Of a stretch of DNA of 64,000 nt, positions 38,831-62,805 are shown one piece after another. The notes below the pieces were generated by a model that made no database searches, was not told the origin of the DNA, and was given only the letters and a program-made list of their open reading frames with translations. The position numbers and the translations under genes are program-made. Position 1 is the first letter of the stretch. The number at the start of each line of letters is the position of its first letter. This DNA is from Clostridia bacterium (GTDB lineage Bacteria; Bacillota; Clostridia; Christensenellales; Borkfalkiaceae), in assembly GCA_017473605.1 (NCBI GenBank), contig JAFUKM010000008.1, forward strand, positions 26,881 through 90,880, given 5' to 3'.

Positions 38831-39235
38831 ATGTCGAAAGATACGAATACACTCAAAGAAGAAGCCAGAAAAGCGAAATCGCGATTGAAAAAAGGTTTTT
38901 GGACGGATTGTAAAGAAAGTATGGACGAACGACTTGAAAAAGCGCGCGCTTTGGGCGTCAACGAGAGCAAAGCGGGACGGTATTTCGCCGAGCAAGTCAC
39001 CAAACAAATTTCGGGCGAAAAGGAAGACGGTTTTTATCTTCGGGTGAAGGAAATGCTGCTTTCGGACGGGGAAGTGAGCGACGCCATCGGACGGCTTACG
39101 GACAAGCCCTATTTCGACACGCTTTCCTATGAAGAGAAACAGCGGTATACCCTTTCTTTAAGCGAGCGCTATCTTCGCGCGTTGGAGCGTTTTAGAAGAG
39201 AGTGCGAATTTGAGAGCGTAGACAAAAAGGCGTAA
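38831..39235 (+). CDS. hypothetical protein (134 aa, charged, helical)
   Basis: ATG 38831 follows GGGGAGGGG. No recognisable domain. Confidence 0.55.
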   Translation: MSKDTNTLKEEARKAKSRLKKGFWTDCKESMDERLEKARALGVNESKAGRYFAEQVTKQISGEKEDGFYLRVKEMLLSDGEVSDAIGRLTDKPYFDTLSYEEKQRYTLSLSERYLRALERFRRECEFESVDKKA

Positions 39236-39345
39236 AAAAGTGAAGTTTGCTTCGCAAGTGAAGTTACTGCGTAGTGAAGTTTTGACTTTGTCAAAGTGAA
39301 GTTTTTTTGCGTAAACGCAAAAAAGTTGTGGCTAAAAAGACAACG
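39236..39345 (-). repeat. inverted AACTTCACT/hairpin array (4 exact units)
   Basis: AGTGAAGTT at 39239, 39257, 39273 and 39295. T7-GCGTAAACGC-A6 hairpin, then GTTGTGGCTA (compare the reverse complement of 50835-50842). Confidence 0.85.
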
Positions 39346-39433
39346 TGATTAGCGTTTTGGAGAGATTTTTATTGGATAATTGGAAAAACTCGATTTTTAT
39401 AAGTTGAGTTTTCTTTTATTTATGAAAAAGTGA

Positions 39434-39462
39434 TTGAAAAAATCAAAAAAGTGTGGTATACT
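39434..39462 (+). promoter_or_regulatory. sigma-A type promoter with extended -10, driving the candidate RNA
   Basis: TTGAAA, 17-nt spacer, TGG-TATACT. The predicted start is about 39469, which is the first base of stem P1. Confidence 0.6.
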
Positions 39463-39468
39463 GTAAAT

Positions 39469-39660
39469 GGCATACAATTTAATAATTTTTAGATGAGTAG
39501 ACAAAGGGAATATTATCCCCTTTTTATTGTCATACTCCCATTATGCGATTTGTTAAAAATGCAAATTCCAAATGGGAGTGTTTACTCATTTCTATTAAAT
39601 TGTATGCCAACAACGGAGTTTGCGTTTTTGGTGCGTTAACTTCGGTTGGCGCACTTTTTT
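39469..39660 (+). ncRNA. candidate structured RNA (about 190 nt), family not recognised
   Basis: P1 is a perfect 16 bp (39469-84 / 39593-608). P2 is 11 bp (39493-503 / 39579-89). There is a GGG/CCC hairpin (about 39503-22). P4 is 9 bp (39534-42 / 39571-79). The terminator is a 10-bp stem with a UUCG loop (39631-54) plus T6. Confidence 0.5.
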
Positions 39661-39697
39661 ATTGGCAAAATAAATATTGAGAAAAGGAGAAGAAAAT

Positions 39698-39850
39698 ATG
39701 TGTTTTTTGCGTAGAAAAAGACAAAAACAAGCGGAGATGGAAGAAGCTTTTCACGATTGGATTGAAGAACAAGACAGAGAAGAAAAAGAACGCGTATGGA
39801 AAAAGATACAGGAGAAAGAAAGAGAACGGCAAAAGGATAAAGAAAAGTAA
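39698..39850 (+). CDS. small highly charged protein (50 aa)
   Basis: AAAAGGAGAAG lies 7 nt before ATG 39698. MCFLRRKRQKQAEMEE...KERERQKDKEK*. Its own terminator follows. Confidence 0.4.
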   Translation: MCFLRRKRQKQAEMEEAFHDWIEEQDREEKERVWKKIQEKERERQKDKEK

Positions 39851-39874
39851 GGCGAAAACCTTACTTTTATTTTT
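39847..39874 (+). terminator. rho-independent terminator
   Basis: Stem GTAAGG / CCTTAC with loop CGAAAA, then TTTTATTTT. Confidence 0.65.
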
Positions 39875-39905
39875 GGGAAACGGGGCGTTGAATTTACGAA
39901 TATAC

Positions 39906-39934
39906 TTGCAAAAAAACGGGGGATATGCTATAAT
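39906..39934 (+). promoter_or_regulatory. sigma-A type promoter abutting the 132-aa ORF
   Basis: TTGCAA, 17-nt spacer, TATAAT. The -10 is only 9 nt from ATG 39944. Confidence 0.5.
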
Positions 39935-39946
39935 ATTTACGTTATG
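39929..39946 (+). repeat. 18-nt direct repeat, copy 1
   Basis: TATAATATTTACGTTATG, identical to 40381-40398. Confidence 0.95.
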
Positions 39947-40342
39947 AAACTCGTTGGCGTAAAGAAAAACATAATAGAAAAACTAAACGGCGTCAAAGTG
40001 GAAGAAGATGATTTATATAAATACGTTCAATCTCCTAATTGGATGAAAAATGCTACTCCAACGGAGATATTGTATTTTTTTACTGAATTAGAGCTTCCAA
40101 AATCTTGTTATGATAGCGTATATACTATTCCCCATGAAACAAAAAAGGAAATGTTATTTGATGAAAGTGTTTATTACCTGAAAAAGATTTTGATTTTTTT
40201 GGGCACGGAAGATGGGTTCCACGCAGATTATATATGTCCAGCATTTCCTGTTGATTTATCGTTGGAAGAACAACATGATATTATCACTAAATTATTGAAT
40301 AAAGAACAAAACGAAAGCTATGAAAAAAAGCGAAATGGATAA
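39944..40342 (+). CDS. hypothetical protein (132 aa) in an AT-rich insert
   Basis: Clean ORF with AT-rich codon usage unlike its neighbours. Its ATG belongs to the duplicated 18-mer. No recognisable domain. Confidence 0.5.
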   Translation: MKLVGVKKNIIEKLNGVKVEEDDLYKYVQSPNWMKNATPTEILYFFTELELPKSCYDSVYTIPHETKKEMLFDESVYYLKKILIFLGTEDGFHADYICPAFPVDLSLEEQHDIITKLLNKEQNESYEKKRNG

Positions 40343-40380
40343 TCGTTGTTTAACGGACTTATTCATTGCGAAAAATAAGG

Positions 40381-40398
40381 TATAATATTTACGTTATG
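40381..40398 (+). repeat. 18-nt direct repeat, copy 2 (contains the pcrA ATG)
   Basis: TATAATATTTACGTTATG. Confidence 0.95.
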
Positions 40399-42825
40399 GT
40401 ACTTATTGACGAAATTTTGGAAAAATTAAACGAAGAACAAATCAAACCCGTTTTGCAAACGGAAGGGGCGGTGCTCGTTTTGGCGGGGGCAGGTAGCGGT
40501 AAAACGCGCGTTTTGACTTCCCGTATCGCCTATCTTATCGAAGAAAAGGGCGTGCCTGCATCGGCTATCCTTGCAATCACGTTCACCAACAAGGCGGCGA
40601 AGGAAATGCAAGAACGCCTTTTCAAAATTACCGACGTGTCCCGTTCTTGGGTATGTACGATTCACAGTATGTGCGTGCGCATTTTGCGTATGTACGCCGA
40701 AGACGTGGGGATTAGCTCCAATTTCTCCATTTACAGCGAAACGGAACGCAACAATATCATCAAAAAGTCCTTTCAAGAGTGCGATTTCGACGACGAAAAA
40801 CTGTTGAAATCGGTAAAATTCCATATTGCCAATGCCAAAATGCTCGGCTTCGAGCCTGAACGCTACGCGGAAGAATACGCAGGCGAACACGATATCGAAG
40901 AAGTGGTAAAGGTATACAAACGCTATCAAAAGCACTTGCGGGAAAACAACGCGCTCGATTTCGACGATTTGCTCAACGAAACGCGTCTGCTTCTCCGCAG
41001 AAACGAAGACGCGAGAGAGTATCTCGGCGGTAAATTCCGCTATATTTTGGTGGACGAGTTCCAAGACACCAACGCGGTGCAATACGAGATTGTCAAACTG
41101 CTCGCTTCCGTGCACGGAAACCTGTTTGCCGTGGGCGACGACGACCAATCCATTTACGGTTGGCGCGGCGCGAAAATTGAAAACATTTTGCACTTTGAAA
41201 AGGATTTCAAGGGCGCAAAAGTGTTTAAGTTAGAGCGCAATTACCGTTCGACGAAGCATATTTTGAAGCTTGCGAATACCGTTATCAAGAACAACGGACG
41301 CAGAAAGGATAAGACGCTTTGGACGGAGAACGACGACGGGCAGGACGCCAAGGTGTACGAAGCGGAAGAAGAAAGCGGCGAAGCGCGCTATATCGCGCAT
41401 ACCATTGCGGGGCTTCTCCGTCAAGGGTATAAATATTCCGATTTCGCGGTGCTGATGCGGCTCAACGCCCTTACCCGTTCTTTCGAACAAGAGTTCACGG
41501 GGGACGGAATCCCCTATAAAGTGTTCGGGGGCTTTAAGTTCTTCGAGAGAAAAGAAATCAAGGACTTGCTTGCGTATTTGCGTTTAATCAACAACCCGTT
41601 CGACAGCGAAGCGGCAACGCGGATTATCAACTTTCCCAAGCGCGGTATCGGCGCGAAAACGGTGGAAACGCTGCAAAATTACGCGTTTGAAACGGAGCTT
41701 TCCGTATACGACGCGTTGCTCGATTTGGATATGCTCGGTTTTTCGGGCGCGACCAAACAAAAGCTCGTCGATTTTCGGGACTTGGTCAAGGGCTGGATTA
41801 TCGACAGCCAAGGTATGCCTGTCAACGAGCTTGTGAAGAAAATCGTTGCGGAAACGCGTATGCGCGAAGCGTACGCGGACGATTCGGACGAGAGTATCAA
41901 CAAACGCGCGAATATCGAAGAATTTATCCAATCGGTAGACGAATATTGCAAGCTCAACGAAGGGGCGAGTTTAACCGATTATCTTAACCAAGTAACCCTT
42001 TCTTCCGACACGGACGAAATGGACGACGGCAACTACGTAACGCTGGCTACGATTCACTCGGTGAAAGGGTTGGAGTTTAAGTGCGTATTCCTTTGCGGTA
42101 TGGAAGAGAACATTATGCCCGTATCGCGCGCGGTGGGCAACGACGAAGATATGGAAGAAGAACGCAGGCTTATGTACGTGGCGATTACCCGCGCCAAGGA
42201 AAGACTGTGGCTTACACGTTCCAAAAGCCGTTATTTATACGGCAGACGAGAGCCGTCTATGCGTTCCAGATTCTTAAAAGAACTTTCTTCCGAGCTGGAT
42301 ATGCCCAAAGAAACGCGCCGTTCGCCCTACGGGTACGACGGCTACGACGACCCCGAAAGCTACGGAAATTCCGCATACGGCGGGGGCAGGTATGCGATGG
42401 ACGACGATTATAGCGGCAGAAAAACGTCGTTTGGGGGCGGGTACGGCTCGTCCTACGGCAGTCCGTCTTACGGCAGGGATAGCAGTAGGCAAAATTCGGG
42501 GATTACCCGTAGCGTATGGAAAGGCAATACGTACGGCAATAGTTATAGTAGCGGCTACGGCGGAAGCAAGCCGCAAAGCGCGAGCGCGCAAAAGAGCAGT
42601 TCGTTCGTATTTGGCGGCGTAGGCAAGCCTATGGCAAAGCCCGTGGGGGCAGGCAAAGACCTGTCGGCGTTCAAAATGGGGGTTAAAGTCAGCCACCCGA
42701 AATTCGGCGTAGGCATGATTGTAAACGTGCGCGGTACGGGGGTAAACACCATTTTGGATATCGCGTTCGAAGGCTTGGGGATTAAACAGCTTTCCGCGAA
42801 TTTAGCGCCGCTTACCTTGGTGTAA
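40396..42825 (+). CDS. pcrA: ATP-dependent DNA helicase PcrA (UvrD family)
   Basis: AGAGSGKT, DEFQDTN, VTLATIHSVKGLEF, and a C-terminal Tudor-like domain (VSHPKFGVGMIV). ATG 40396 (MVLIDEILEKLNEEQ). Confidence 0.93.
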   Translation: MVLIDEILEKLNEEQIKPVLQTEGAVLVLAGAGSGKTRVLTSRIAYLIEEKGVPASAILAITFTNKAAKEMQERLFKITDVSRSWVCTIHSMCVRILRMYAEDVGISSNFSIYSETERNNIIKKSFQECDFDDEKLLKSVKFHIANAKMLGFEPERYAEEYAGEHDIEEVVKVYKRYQKHLRENNALDFDDLLNETRLLLRRNEDAREYLGGKFRYILVDEFQDTNAVQYEIVKLLASVHGNLFAVGDDDQSIYGWRGAKIENILHFEKDFKGAKVFKLERNYRSTKHILKLANTVIKNNGRRKDKTLWTENDDGQDAKVYEAEEESGEARYIAHTIAGLLRQGYKYSDFAVLMRLNALTRSFEQEFTGDGIPYKVFGGFKFFERKEIKDLLAYLRLINNPFDSEAATRIINFPKRGIGAKTVETLQNYAFETELSVYDALLDLDMLGFSGATKQKLVDFRDLVKGWIIDSQGMPVNELVKKIVAETRMREAYADDSDESINKRANIEEFIQSVDEYCKLNEGASLTDYLNQVTLSSDTDEMDDGNYVTLATIHSVKGLEFKCVFLCGMEENIMPVSRAVGNDEDMEEERRLMYVAITRAKERLWLTRSKSRYLYGRREPSMRSRFLKELSSELDMPKETRRSPYGYDGYDDPESYGNSAYGGGRYAMDDDYSGRKTSFGGGYGSSYGSPSYGRDSSRQNSGITRSVWKGNTYGNSYSSGYGGSKPQSASAQKSSSFVFGGVGKPMAKPVGAGKDLSAFKMGVKVSHPKFGVGMIVNVRGTGVNTILDIAFEGLGIKQLSANLAPLTLV

Positions 42826-48350: not shown

Positions 48351-48552
48351 GTGCGGCGAGCCGCCGCTCCCAAATCTTTCTATCTTTCCACAACGCTTAT
48401 AAGTAGCGTTATCGTGAATAAATAGAAATATAAGCCTTAACTTTTTGTTCGCTTGCGGACAAAAAACTTCACTTTCCGCCTCGCGGAAAACTTCACTTGA
48501 TTTATCAAACTTCACTTTTGCCCAAAGGGCAAAAACTTCACTTCATTAAGAG
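48351..48552 (+). repeat. full-length modular repeat element (archetype)
   Basis: Hairpin 48353-67, core 48370-88, hairpin 48442-65, and AACTTCACT at 48465, 48489, 48508 and 48534. It ends 12 nt before the priA ATG. Confidence 0.9.
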
Positions 48553-50738: not shown

Positions 50739-50935
50739 ATTTTTACGCTATGCGTAAAAGTGAAGTAGGTCTAACGAAAAGTGGAGTTTTTTGTCCGTTT
50801 CTCGGACAAAAAGTTATTGCAAATATAAATAATAGCCACAACTGCAACCAAAGGTTGCAACTTCACTTTAACGTGGTTAAAACTTCACTGCGAAGCAACT
50901 TCACTACGCTGTGGGCGTAACTTCACATATATAAA
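50739..50935. repeat. composite head-to-head pair of repeat elements
   Basis: Left arm inverted (AGTGAAGTa 50759, AGTGgAGTT 50780, hairpin 50787-50815). Right arm forward (AACTTCACT 50859, 50881, 50897; AACTTCACa 50919). Confidence 0.85.
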
Positions 50936-61167: not shown

Positions 61168-61173
61168 ACAGTT

Positions 61174-61337
61174 GCGACTCAAAACTGCATTTTTCAGAAA
61201 GTATACTTCCTGTGGCGGAAGTGTACCTTTTCGCGTTATCAAAAATCTTTCTGAAAAATGATTTTGTGTTTTGTGTCGCAGCAAAGCGAAAAGAACATTT
61301 TTGCAGATGTCGTTCGTTTTGCGAACGGCATTTTTTA
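61174..61337 (+). promoter_or_regulatory. structured 5' leader ending in an intrinsic terminator (riboswitch/attenuator candidate)
   Basis: TTTTTCAGAAAG (61190-) pairs with CTTTCTGAAAAA (61247-). Inner hairpin ACTTCC-TGTGGC-GGAAGT. CTTTTCGC/GCGAAAAG is an alternative pairing. The terminator is a 10-bp stem at 61307-61331 plus a T-run. Confidence 0.45.
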
Positions 61338-61367: not shown

Positions 61368-62456
61368 ATGTCAAAAAGCAAAGCAAAAAGTATCGTGAGC
61401 ATAATCGTTTCGATTATTTCGTTTGTAATCGCGGCGGTGATGTTGGTGCCGACGATAAAAAACCTGATAGAAAGCCAACGGGAAGCGGAAGCCAACCGCC
61501 CGAAAGCCATATCCGCGCCCGCCGATTTTACGTACGACGAAGAAACGTACACGTTGTCTTGGGGAAGCGTAGAAAACGCAACGGGGTACGTTCTCGATTA
61601 TAACGGGCGGGAAATCGAATTGGAAAAAACGGAAACCGAATATACCGTATTGCTGACGGCAACGGAAAACGCGTTTAAGATAAAGGCGAAAGGGAACGGG
61701 GACAAATATCTCGATTCCGATTGGTCGCAGACGTTGACGTATACGATGGGCGCAATCGGCGAAGATAACGGAAGCGATAATGCCGAACAGGAAATCTCCT
61801 TGTATGATAAAATCAATATGGAGCTTGCCCGCGCCGCGCAAGCAAAAGGGTATACATTGGAACGGGTAATAGGGATTCCCTTTGCGCAAACGACAGGTTT
61901 GGGTTTGCGTTGCGGGATTGATTTTATGTGTATTGTAACTAAACGAAATGTTGAATATAGTGTTGCTGTGTGCTATAATATGGAAAAAGCAATAACAATT
62001 TGTGAGTTGATTGACAACCTATCGAAAGAAACATTTTCATCATTAAGGGTCTATTCCACCGTAGTCTACAACTCGGCGGAAAAGTTTATTGCCAGTAAAA
62101 ACTATGCGGGGGAAATGAAAAAGCTGTACGAGCAAGGGTATGAAATCACGGTATTGGACAGTTGCGTACGGGAAGGGATAACGGGAAGCAATCTATTCCG
62201 TTTTGAAATCGTAGGCACGTACAAAGCGGTACACGAAAACGGGGACGTCAAATATTTTACGTCGGTCAACCAAGTGGACGTGTTGAACGTAAGTTCTGCG
62301 GAAAGCTATAATTATGAGCCGGCGTTTAATATAGAGGGTCGGGTGGAAATCACAGAAACCCAATACATATTACACGAAGAAGGCGGAACGCTGGAATATA
62401 TGGCAAAGCTGATAGAACAGCAAGAGCGAGCGTTAGCGGAAAAAGAAAGCGCGTAA
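61368..62456 (+). CDS. membrane-anchored hypothetical protein with FN3-like ectodomain segment
   Basis: AAAGGAGAAA lies 8 nt before ATG 61368. N-terminal TM SIVSIIVSIISFVIAAVMLV. ...TYTLSWGSVENATGYVLDYNG resembles FN3. Confidence 0.6.
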   Translation: MSKSKAKSIVSIIVSIISFVIAAVMLVPTIKNLIESQREAEANRPKAISAPADFTYDEETYTLSWGSVENATGYVLDYNGREIELEKTETEYTVLLTATENAFKIKAKGNGDKYLDSDWSQTLTYTMGAIGEDNGSDNAEQEISLYDKINMELARAAQAKGYTLERVIGIPFAQTTGLGLRCGIDFMCIVTKRNVEYSVAVCYNMEKAITICELIDNLSKETFSSLRVYSTVVYNSAEKFIASKNYAGEMKKLYEQGYEITVLDSCVREGITGSNLFRFEIVGTYKAVHENGDVKYFTSVNQVDVLNVSSAESYNYEPAFNIEGRVEITETQYILHEEGGTLEYMAKLIEQQERALAEKESA

Positions 62457-62613: not shown

Positions 62614-62805
62614 TGCGGTGGTGGCAAGCTGCCACTTCCAAGTCTTTCTATCTTTCACTATCGCTTATGCTTAGCTATATCGTTGACAAATATAAATATA
62701 AGCCGCAACTTTTTGTCCGTTTTACGGACAAAAACTTCACTTCGGCGTAGCCGAAACTTCACTGCGCAGTAACTTCACTTTGGCATAGCCAAAACTTCAC
62801 TATAA
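62614..62805 (+). repeat. second full-length modular repeat element
   Basis: Hairpin GTGGCAAGCTGCCAC (62621-35). Core TTCCAAGTCTTTCTATCTTTC (62636-56). ...AAATATAAGCCGCAAC. Hairpin 62711-34. AACTTCACT at 62733, 62755, 62771 and 62793. Confidence 0.9.

Follow-up and report, generated by a model that had tools for sequence, protein, structure and literature searches.

Transcription attenuators of Firmicutes, such as the S-box/SAM-I and T-box platforms and the trp and pyr leaders of B. subtilis, are close in layout to the RNA family studied here. They share with it the order of promoter, structured leader, terminator and ribosome-binding site (RBS), three mutually exclusive helices, termination that is permitted by sequestration of the 5′ strand of the antiterminator, and many copies per genome. 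However, the present family has no recognisable aptamer core, specifier, protein-binding repeat or Rfam match. In addition, its closing helix runs for 16-25 bp from +1, and its anti-antiterminator is a pseudoknot-type pairing to a hairpin tip and not to P1.

Three other systems show partial likeness. The PR′-tR′ region of phage lambda produces a 194-nt "6S" leader, which is read through under Q antitermination. It resembles the family in its strong constitutive promoter, a terminated leader of about 200 nt, and accessory genes that need bypass of the terminator. However, the family has a covarying RNA antiterminator, no Q-like protein or conserved neighbour was found, and its members are chromosomal and multi-copy, with few on viral contigs. 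Meanwhile, the cwpV and flgB switches of C. difficile also have a segment of about 150 nt flanked by inverted repeats, which lies between a promoter and a surface gene and acts after initiation via termination, and one natural flipped copy of the present family is a further shared trait. Unlike these switches, 163 of 164 copies of the family have one orientation, selection acts on the sense-strand RNA, the repeats are copy-specific, and no recombinase was found. 6S RNA is likewise about 190 nt long with a long closing helix, but the family lacks its central bubble, occurs in six or more copies per genome, and has a leader position and a terminator switch.

In this study, we analysed a window of 64,000 nucleotides from a Clostridia bacterium (GCA_017473605.1, contig JAFUKM010000008.1, positions 26,881 to 90,880). 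We propose that the RNA at 39469-39660 is probably a cis-acting, kinetically controlled terminator/antiterminator/anti-antiterminator leader of an uncatalogued family. It is of a known kind by mechanism, and it is new by family, by architecture (the +1 anchor and the long-range pairing to a hairpin tip) and by regulon.

Structure of the element in the window

The features of the element and its surroundings are listed in Table 1. The promoter has 10 of 12 consensus matches plus the TG in a consensus scan. The 192-nt RNA folds into a Y with a three-way junction at a minimum free energy (MFE) of -73.7 kcal/mol, and dinucleotide shuffles (n = 200) gave -35.7 ± 4.2 kcal/mol (z = -9.1; 0/200 equalled the native fold). 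The reverse strand of the same interval folds more weakly (-58.4 kcal/mol). In the window copy, the tip hairpin has an energy of -4.2 kcal/mol, and the antiterminator reaches -12.4 versus -13.5 kcal/mol for the terminator.

The preliminary description had presented a structured RNA bounded by a promoter and a terminator, with a three-way-junction body. All of the parts listed there were found in place, and the MFE fold agrees with the junction. A linker was also found, though of 21 nt and not 22 nt, and it is the switching strand rather than a passive spacer. Furthermore, the DNA is AT-rich as had been noted (GC 31-36% at 39200-40400 versus 45-55% in the flanks); the suggestion that it was acquired is drawn from this difference in composition. 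The 16-bp P1 had been noted as much longer than the usual P1 of riboswitches. However, a long P1 from +1 is a trait of the whole family and gives no argument against a regulatory leader. The 5′-anchored P1 helix probably also stabilises the transcript.

Table 1. Features of the element, its surroundings and a second leader in the window
Feature	Position	Strand	Sequence or description	Method
Promoter	39434-39462	+	-35 TTGAAA (39434-39439), 17-nt spacer, extended -10 TGgTATACT (39454-39462)	Consensus scan
Folded body P1-P4	39469-39608	+		MFE fold
P1	39469-39484 / 39593-39608	+	Perfect 16-bp helix, begins 6 nt past -10	
P2	39491-39502 / 39580-39591	+		MFE fold
P3	39503-39508 / 39518-39523	+	GGG/CCC hairpin, then U-run	MFE fold
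P4	39534-39542 / 39571-39579	+	9 bp, small hairpin as cap	MFE fold
P4 cap hairpin	39547-39553 / 39561-39567	+		MFE fold
P4 tip hairpin	39547-39569	+	Arm A GAUUUGU (39547-39553), A-rich loop, arm B UGCAAAUUCC (39560-39569)	
Linker / switch strand	39609-39629	+	21 nt: pre-linker AACAAC (39609-39614), A′ GGAGUUUGCG (39615-39624), U5 tract (39625-39629)	
Antiterminator hairpin	39611-39648	+	CAAC-GGAGUU (39611-39620) with AACUUCG-GUUG (39638-39648), the loop and top of the terminator	
Intrinsic terminator	39631-39660	+	GUGCGUUAAC-UUCG-GUUGGCGCAC + U6; stem 39631-39640 / 39645-39654	Terminator scan
Window cargo	39683-39850	+	SD AAAAGGAGAAG and highly charged 50-codon ORF (39698-39850)	
Terminator-like hairpin	39843-39868	.	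Bidirectional, closes the unit	Scan
Promoter of 132-aa ORF	39906-39934			
18-nt direct repeat	39929-39946 and 40381-40398		Exact repeat TATAATATTTACGTTATG	
Second leader	61172-61337	+	Promoter TTGACA-17-TGgTACAAT, rod from +1 (z -7.1), terminator	

Copies and distribution of the family

The Rfam 15 covariance models, which include 6S, T-box, riboswitches, raiA and Clostridiales-1, gave no match to 39469-39660, neither at the gathering score nor with a limit of E ≤ 10, which bears out the earlier view of an unrecognised family. No match at E ≤ 0.01 was obtained for 15 other members and relatives, and a full-text literature search with the conserved words and related topics returned only primers and unrelated papers. 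6S RNA was considered and rejected, with no RF00013 match at E ≤ 10 and a three-way junction without a central bubble.

The element is repeated and not an orphan, as the BLAST check for related copies showed. The assembly of its own genome (1.11 Mb, 63% complete) contains six distinct full copies, namely C1, C3, C4, C7 (the window copy), C13 and C15, which were found by BLAST, pattern scan and promoter search; C14 is a duplicate of C15 and was left out of the count. Each of the six copies has its own promoter with the layout TTGAYA-17-TGnTATACT, and P1 and the RNA start 5-6 nt past the -10. The six share one Y-shaped fold, though the sequences of P1, P2 and P4 differ completely.

To estimate the spread of the family, a covariance model was built from these six copies. 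In the genus, copies were found in 40 of 61 sampled genomes, with a maximum of 9 per genome. The model detected the family in 29 of 201 genomes and 19 of 118 genera of the order, and in the phylum it added 2 further genomes among about 400 sampled, both of the same class. Meanwhile, the exact pattern of the 3′ module occurs at more than 119 loci in a collection of species-representative genomes. All of these loci are in metagenome-assembled genomes (MAGs) from human, ruminant, rabbit and other guts, which carry the NCBI labels Clostridia, Oscillospiraceae, Acutalibacteraceae, Christensenellaceae, Faecousia, Fimenecus and Scatosoma. Only four viral contigs have the module. Copies of this undescribed leader RNA number in the hundreds in gut Clostridia, and the window RNA is one of them.

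Neither an internal nor an antisense ORF is conserved between copies, and the internal frame of the C4 copy stops at codon 4. Two candidate peptides were rejected: for a leader peptide from the AUG at the P4 tip, the AUG is U/C-variable, there is no SD, and the C4 copy interrupts the frame; for a peptide coded across the terminator, the frame differs between copies. In addition, pairs of family copies occur in some genomes, arranged head to tail and with a separate promoter and terminator for each copy (L042:97-557; G042:C93:18006-18472), and this arrangement is also seen as a contig back-joint (39698>39434).

Covariation and energies of the switch helices

Pairing was counted in alignment A5, whose 62 members were found by the model and not selected by pattern; such counting alignments are partly fitted to a model made from the same family, and the percentages that follow are to be read accordingly. 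The terminator stem is 98.7% paired, with compensatory changes in 6 of 10 pairs. The long-range helix between A′ and B has 10 pairs and is 97.7% paired, and five of its pairs show compensatory changes (16 cells). None of 500 shuffles reached this value, and pairing fell to at most 50% when the strands were slid. Examples of paired changes are GCAGAUUC with GGAGUCUGC, ACAGAUUCU with GGAGUCUGU, and CAAAUUUC with GAAGUUUG, and two members have a matched one-pair deletion. The antiterminator has 11 pairs, of which the 5′ strand is made up of the pre-linker and the first six bases of A′. It is 94% paired, with 4 compensatory pairs (17 cells; 0/500 shuffles reached this number of cells; at most 62.5% when slid). 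Furthermore, in the pattern-selected set the pre-linkers ACAAUC, ACUAUC and ACGAUU track GUUG, GUAG/GUGG and GUCG in the 3′ arm of the terminator.

The local tip hairpin A:B is 92.4% paired without double changes in the 62 members, and it is the most conserved block of the body. The U5 tract after A′ is nearly invariant. In a set of 98 sequences, pairing at the P1 base amounts to 99.5%, and 8 of its 10 pairs have compensatory changes. The stems therefore covary in homologues, in the P1 base, the terminator and others. At the level of compared sequences, covariation shows that the terminator, the antiterminator and the long-range B:A′ helix are three predicted helices that exclude one another. 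The geometry of the B:A′ pseudoknot received no support from the correlation of P4 length with P1+P2 length (r = -0.5).

In the 62 members, the mean energies are -4.6 kcal/mol for the tip hairpin, -12.1 for B:A′, -15.3 for the antiterminator and -13.9 for the terminator. Thus, the antiterminator competes well with the terminator when A′ is free. For the two combined states, B:A′ plus terminator has a mean of -26.0 versus -19.9 kcal/mol for tip hairpin plus antiterminator.

A MITE or another selfish repeat, with terminal inverted repeats that fold by chance, would also be multi-copy, AT-rich, bounded by inverted repeats and patchy in distribution. However, the "terminal repeats" of P1 differ between copies yet stay paired, the internal stems covary likewise, and conservation is seen in a promoter and a terminator switch. 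In addition, the orientation relative to the downstream gene is non-random. We consider this explanation hardly credible, and the covarying stems and the non-random orientation led us to reject it.

The few conserved unpaired bases are A/U-rich (AAUA, the U-run and the A-rich loop), and the junction strands are poorly conserved. These observations bear on a metabolite or second-messenger riboswitch, in which the three-way junction would be an aptamer and a ligand would control B; such a reading differs from ours only in the trigger. A three-way junction, a long-range pairing and a terminator/antiterminator platform are indeed present, many copies per genome lie ahead of surface-protein genes, and a patchy distribution would need no dedicated protein. 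Regulons of c-di-GMP riboswitches in Clostridia resemble such multi-copy leaders of surface genes. Nevertheless, the poor conservation of the junction and the A/U-rich character of the conserved bases argue against an aptamer, and rod-shaped relatives without a junction keep the same switch logic. Moreover, the length of P1 (16-25 bp) excludes ligand-dependent P1 formation. We therefore regard a ligand-binding riboswitch as unlikely, though it deserves mention.

Strand specificity and the inverted copy

When 88 bodies were compared by strand, G-U pairs outnumbered A-C single mismatches by 493 to 13 on the sense strand and by 131 to 107 on the reverse complement. Folding favours the sense strand in 87 of the 88 bodies, with means of -58.1 versus -46.1 kcal/mol. 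The asymmetry of 493:13 points to selection on one transcribed orientation and speaks against a pure DNA inverted repeat. Thus, we read the strand-specific structure as that of a cis-acting transcription attenuator.

One copy is inverted. It lies on a viral contig (L176:3653-3856 (-)) and is the same DNA as a metagenome contig (L209:787-1104). Its body of about 120 nt is reverse-complemented between intact P1 arms, and the promoter and terminator module stand in normal order. In the transcribed orientation its folding energy is -42.3 kcal/mol, versus -55.4 kcal/mol for the reverse complement. A flipped body was found in 1 of 164 distinct copies, which were classed by loop composition and folding energy, the tip hairpin being nearly palindromic. 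A search of viral and metagenome collections with the pattern of the flipped form gave no match beyond this sequence. Contigs of four unrelated runs from sludge, soil and wastewater all carry it in an identical, fixed form, and the other orientation is not visible in any of them.

This copy means that inversion can happen, and it raises the question of an inverton, in which the P1 arms would be the inverted repeats of a recombinase and a flip of the body would switch the surface gene, as at cwpV and flgB of C. difficile. The surface-protein and restriction-modification cargo is typical of phase-variable genes, and the P1 base is conserved in sequence (GCCAAAC/GUUUGGC). Nevertheless, the single flipped copy is fixed and no mixed orientation appears in the assembled contigs, the P1 sequences differ among the six copies of one genome, and no recombinase recurs beside the copies. 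Together with the G-U versus A-C asymmetry, these results make an inverton very improbable. Under the attenuator reading, inversion should weaken B:A′ and favour read-through. It is not the normal mode of the family.

Gene context and cargo

We examined 117 loci found by pattern, of which 101 have a callable downstream gene. This gene is co-oriented in 80 of the 101 loci, and its start lies at most 150 nt past the T-run in 57 of them. The typical distance is 17-30 nt, which leaves room for an RBS and none for a promoter. In the window, the 50-codon ORF starts 38 nt past the T-run, and the consensus scan found no promoter-like site between 39660 and 39698. The position ahead of genes without a promoter of their own argues for a leader rather than a free-standing sRNA. 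The family thus has a co-oriented promoterless gene behind it and a conserved antiterminator that is exclusive with an intrinsic terminator, as an attenuator leader would. Meanwhile, about 20% of the copies, including C13 in the own genome, face a convergent or a distant gene. A part of the family may therefore work as stand-alone RNAs only.

Among 59 downstream products that were scanned, there were 9 BspA-type LRR proteins, 6 zinc ribbons, 3 SPFH proteins, 2 AMP-binding proteins and 1 EcoRI-type methylase. Most of the 59 have no Pfam family, but they have lipoprotein or signal-peptide N-termini. When 1138 neighbouring ORFs of about 190 copies were clustered, LRR lipoproteins were found at 43 loci, and neither an RNA-binding protein nor a recombinase recurred. 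The cargo in the own genome consists of three lipoproteins, a D12 methylase and TdeIII endonuclease pair, and the 50-codon ORF of the window, and one copy is convergent to its neighbour. The restriction-modification pair, which is of type II with a D12-class adenine methylase and a TdeIII-type endonuclease, follows the C4 copy (L002:1707-3182).

The preliminary description had favoured a trans-acting or protein-binding RNA, or an RNA antitoxin. These proposals were not supported, as no ORF is conserved on either strand and the element sits upstream of co-oriented genes. In a type I toxin-antitoxin system, a conserved toxin ORF would overlap or adjoin the RNA; here the ORFs are not conserved and the neighbours are unrelated. 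The suggested co-occurrence with the 50-aa and 132-aa ORFs was not borne out either, as neither has a Pfam family or a homologue beside any other family copy.

More generally, the element could be a stable stand-alone sRNA that acts in trans or binds a protein, with a constitutive terminator and incidental expression downstream. A 190-nt product should be stable, given its strong terminator and its 5′ end sequestered in P1, and the copies without a nearby co-oriented gene behind them would fit. The same is true of a mini type with the words GAAGUAC/GUACUUC, which is usually single-copy per genome without an RBS behind. It is also known that terminated riboswitch leaders can act in trans, e.g., SreA of Listeria. 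However, 57 of 101 downstream genes start 17-150 nt past the T-run without room for a promoter, a covarying antiterminator and anti-antiterminator would have no purpose in a constitutively terminated RNA, and no seed-like conserved single strand exists besides the switch strand. Thus, we consider a stand-alone sRNA improbable as a general explanation.

Transcription data

Transcription was examined in assembled (Logan) contigs of public runs, in which carry-over of DNA is possible. In gut metagenomes, the 3′ module has a summed depth of about 2700 versus 14 for unique flanks. The module is also present in contigs of two metatranscriptomes, and some of these contigs run past the terminator into RBS/ATG-like sequence. 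At best, the metatranscriptome contigs show transcription. A drop of depth after the module was considered as a signal of termination and rejected; it reflects sequence divergence instead.

Proposed mechanism

The comparative data show the alternative helices and the gene context, from which we infer conditional termination. In the proposed scheme, a strong sigma-A promoter would start the RNA on the first base of the long closing helix. Once polymerase has completed the Y-shaped body, the strand AACAAC-GGAGUUUGCG would emerge, and it could pair with either of two partners. The first is UGCAAAUUCC at the P4 tip. This long-range anti-antiterminator would sequester the antiterminator strand and leave the UUCG terminator free to form. 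The second consists of the loop and the upper stem of the nascent terminator; pairing with it would give the antiterminator, and polymerase would run on into the downstream gene, that is, into an SD and ORF beginning 20-40 nt past the T-run.

The OFF state, an RNA of about 190 nt, would be favoured thermodynamically (family means of about -26 kcal/mol OFF versus -20 kcal/mol ON). Meanwhile, kinetics would favour the ON state, whose tip hairpin and antiterminator are both local and should be the first to form. A pause at the conserved U5 tract behind A′ may determine how long the RNA has to choose between the two.

As to the trigger, our best guess is a general input and not a metabolite pocket, for example the pausing or speed of polymerase, NusA/NusG, an RNA-binding factor, or a sibling RNA that acts on the tip hairpin. 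This guess is based on the scarcity and A/U-rich composition of the conserved unpaired bases and on sister families that use different words for one and the same logic of three partners.

In gut and rumen Clostridia that are abundant but uncultured, the leader precedes variable surface genes, among them those for BspA-type LRR lipoproteins and for zinc-ribbon and SPFH membrane proteins, as well as some restriction-modification genes. Should the switch prove to be regulated, it would govern a large hidden regulon for surface presentation to host and phages, and it would add an orphan attenuator or riboswitch-like class with a +1 anchor and a long-range anti-antiterminator. The family merits an Rfam entry, which would improve the annotation of the genomes that carry it.

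Relatives with other words

Weaker matches of the model are rods of about 135-145 nt that share this plan. Behind the promoter, a helix beginning with GYNACACA starts at +1 and carries an A-rich loop in its tip hairpin; AACA, a switch strand with U5 and a terminator come after the helix. Their words differ, for example GAGAG/CUCUC with CUCUC again in the apex of the terminator, or GAAGUAC/GUACUUC. Most rod relatives have an RBS and an ATG behind them. A mini relative of about 137 nt lies in the own genome outside the window (C7:16429-16565 (-)), and further ones of several word types were found at L210-L228. Members with the words GAAGUAC/GUACUUC lack an RBS behind them and, in genomes where the model detected them, are usually present in a single copy; in L223 they stand in tandem. 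Being single-copy without an RBS, this type may be a stand-alone sRNA.

The window itself contains a second leader with different words, CUUUUCGC and GCGAAAAG (Table 1). It is upstream of a membrane-protein gene, with an RBS and then an ATG at 61369.

Judged from these sequences, the logic of a switch with three partners looks general across the relatives, and the words look arbitrary. Arbitrary-looking words make the sequence-specific recognition of a word by a dedicated factor less likely. A wider and rather doubtful proposal is that the family, the rod minis and the leader at 61172-61337 belong to one superfamily of word-programmable kinetic attenuators that sense a global input. In such a superfamily, a word of 7-10 nt may be held in triplicate, in the hairpin tip, the switch strand and the apex of the terminator. 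The input may be the pausing of RNA polymerase or the supply of NTPs, or terminated sibling leaders that act in trans on a shared word. If this proposal is true, the repertoire of BspA-type LRR lipoproteins would be expressed coordinately or mutually exclusively, and rare inversion of the body, as in L176, would give variants that are locked ON.

Other repeats near the element

The 132-aa ORF next to the element has its own promoter and is bracketed by the two copies of an exact direct repeat (Table 1). The second copy ends in an ATG, most likely the start of pcrA (MVLIDEIL...). Thus, the ORF looks like a cassette inserted at the start of pcrA.

In addition, a Gut-1-like repeat lies at 39238-39345 (+), directly after the stop of a 134-aa ORF, and further ones are present in the window (48466-48541, 50860-50926, 62734-62800 (-)). 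The array is made up of two to four units, each a GTGAAGT motif with a small variable hairpin, and is followed by a T-run or hairpin and GTTGTGGC..ATATTT. The match of the window array to Rfam Gut-1 is weak (31 bits versus a gathering score of 50), and the flank of a relative (L029) reaches 51 bits. The partial genome as a whole contains at least 25 Gut-1-like arrays.
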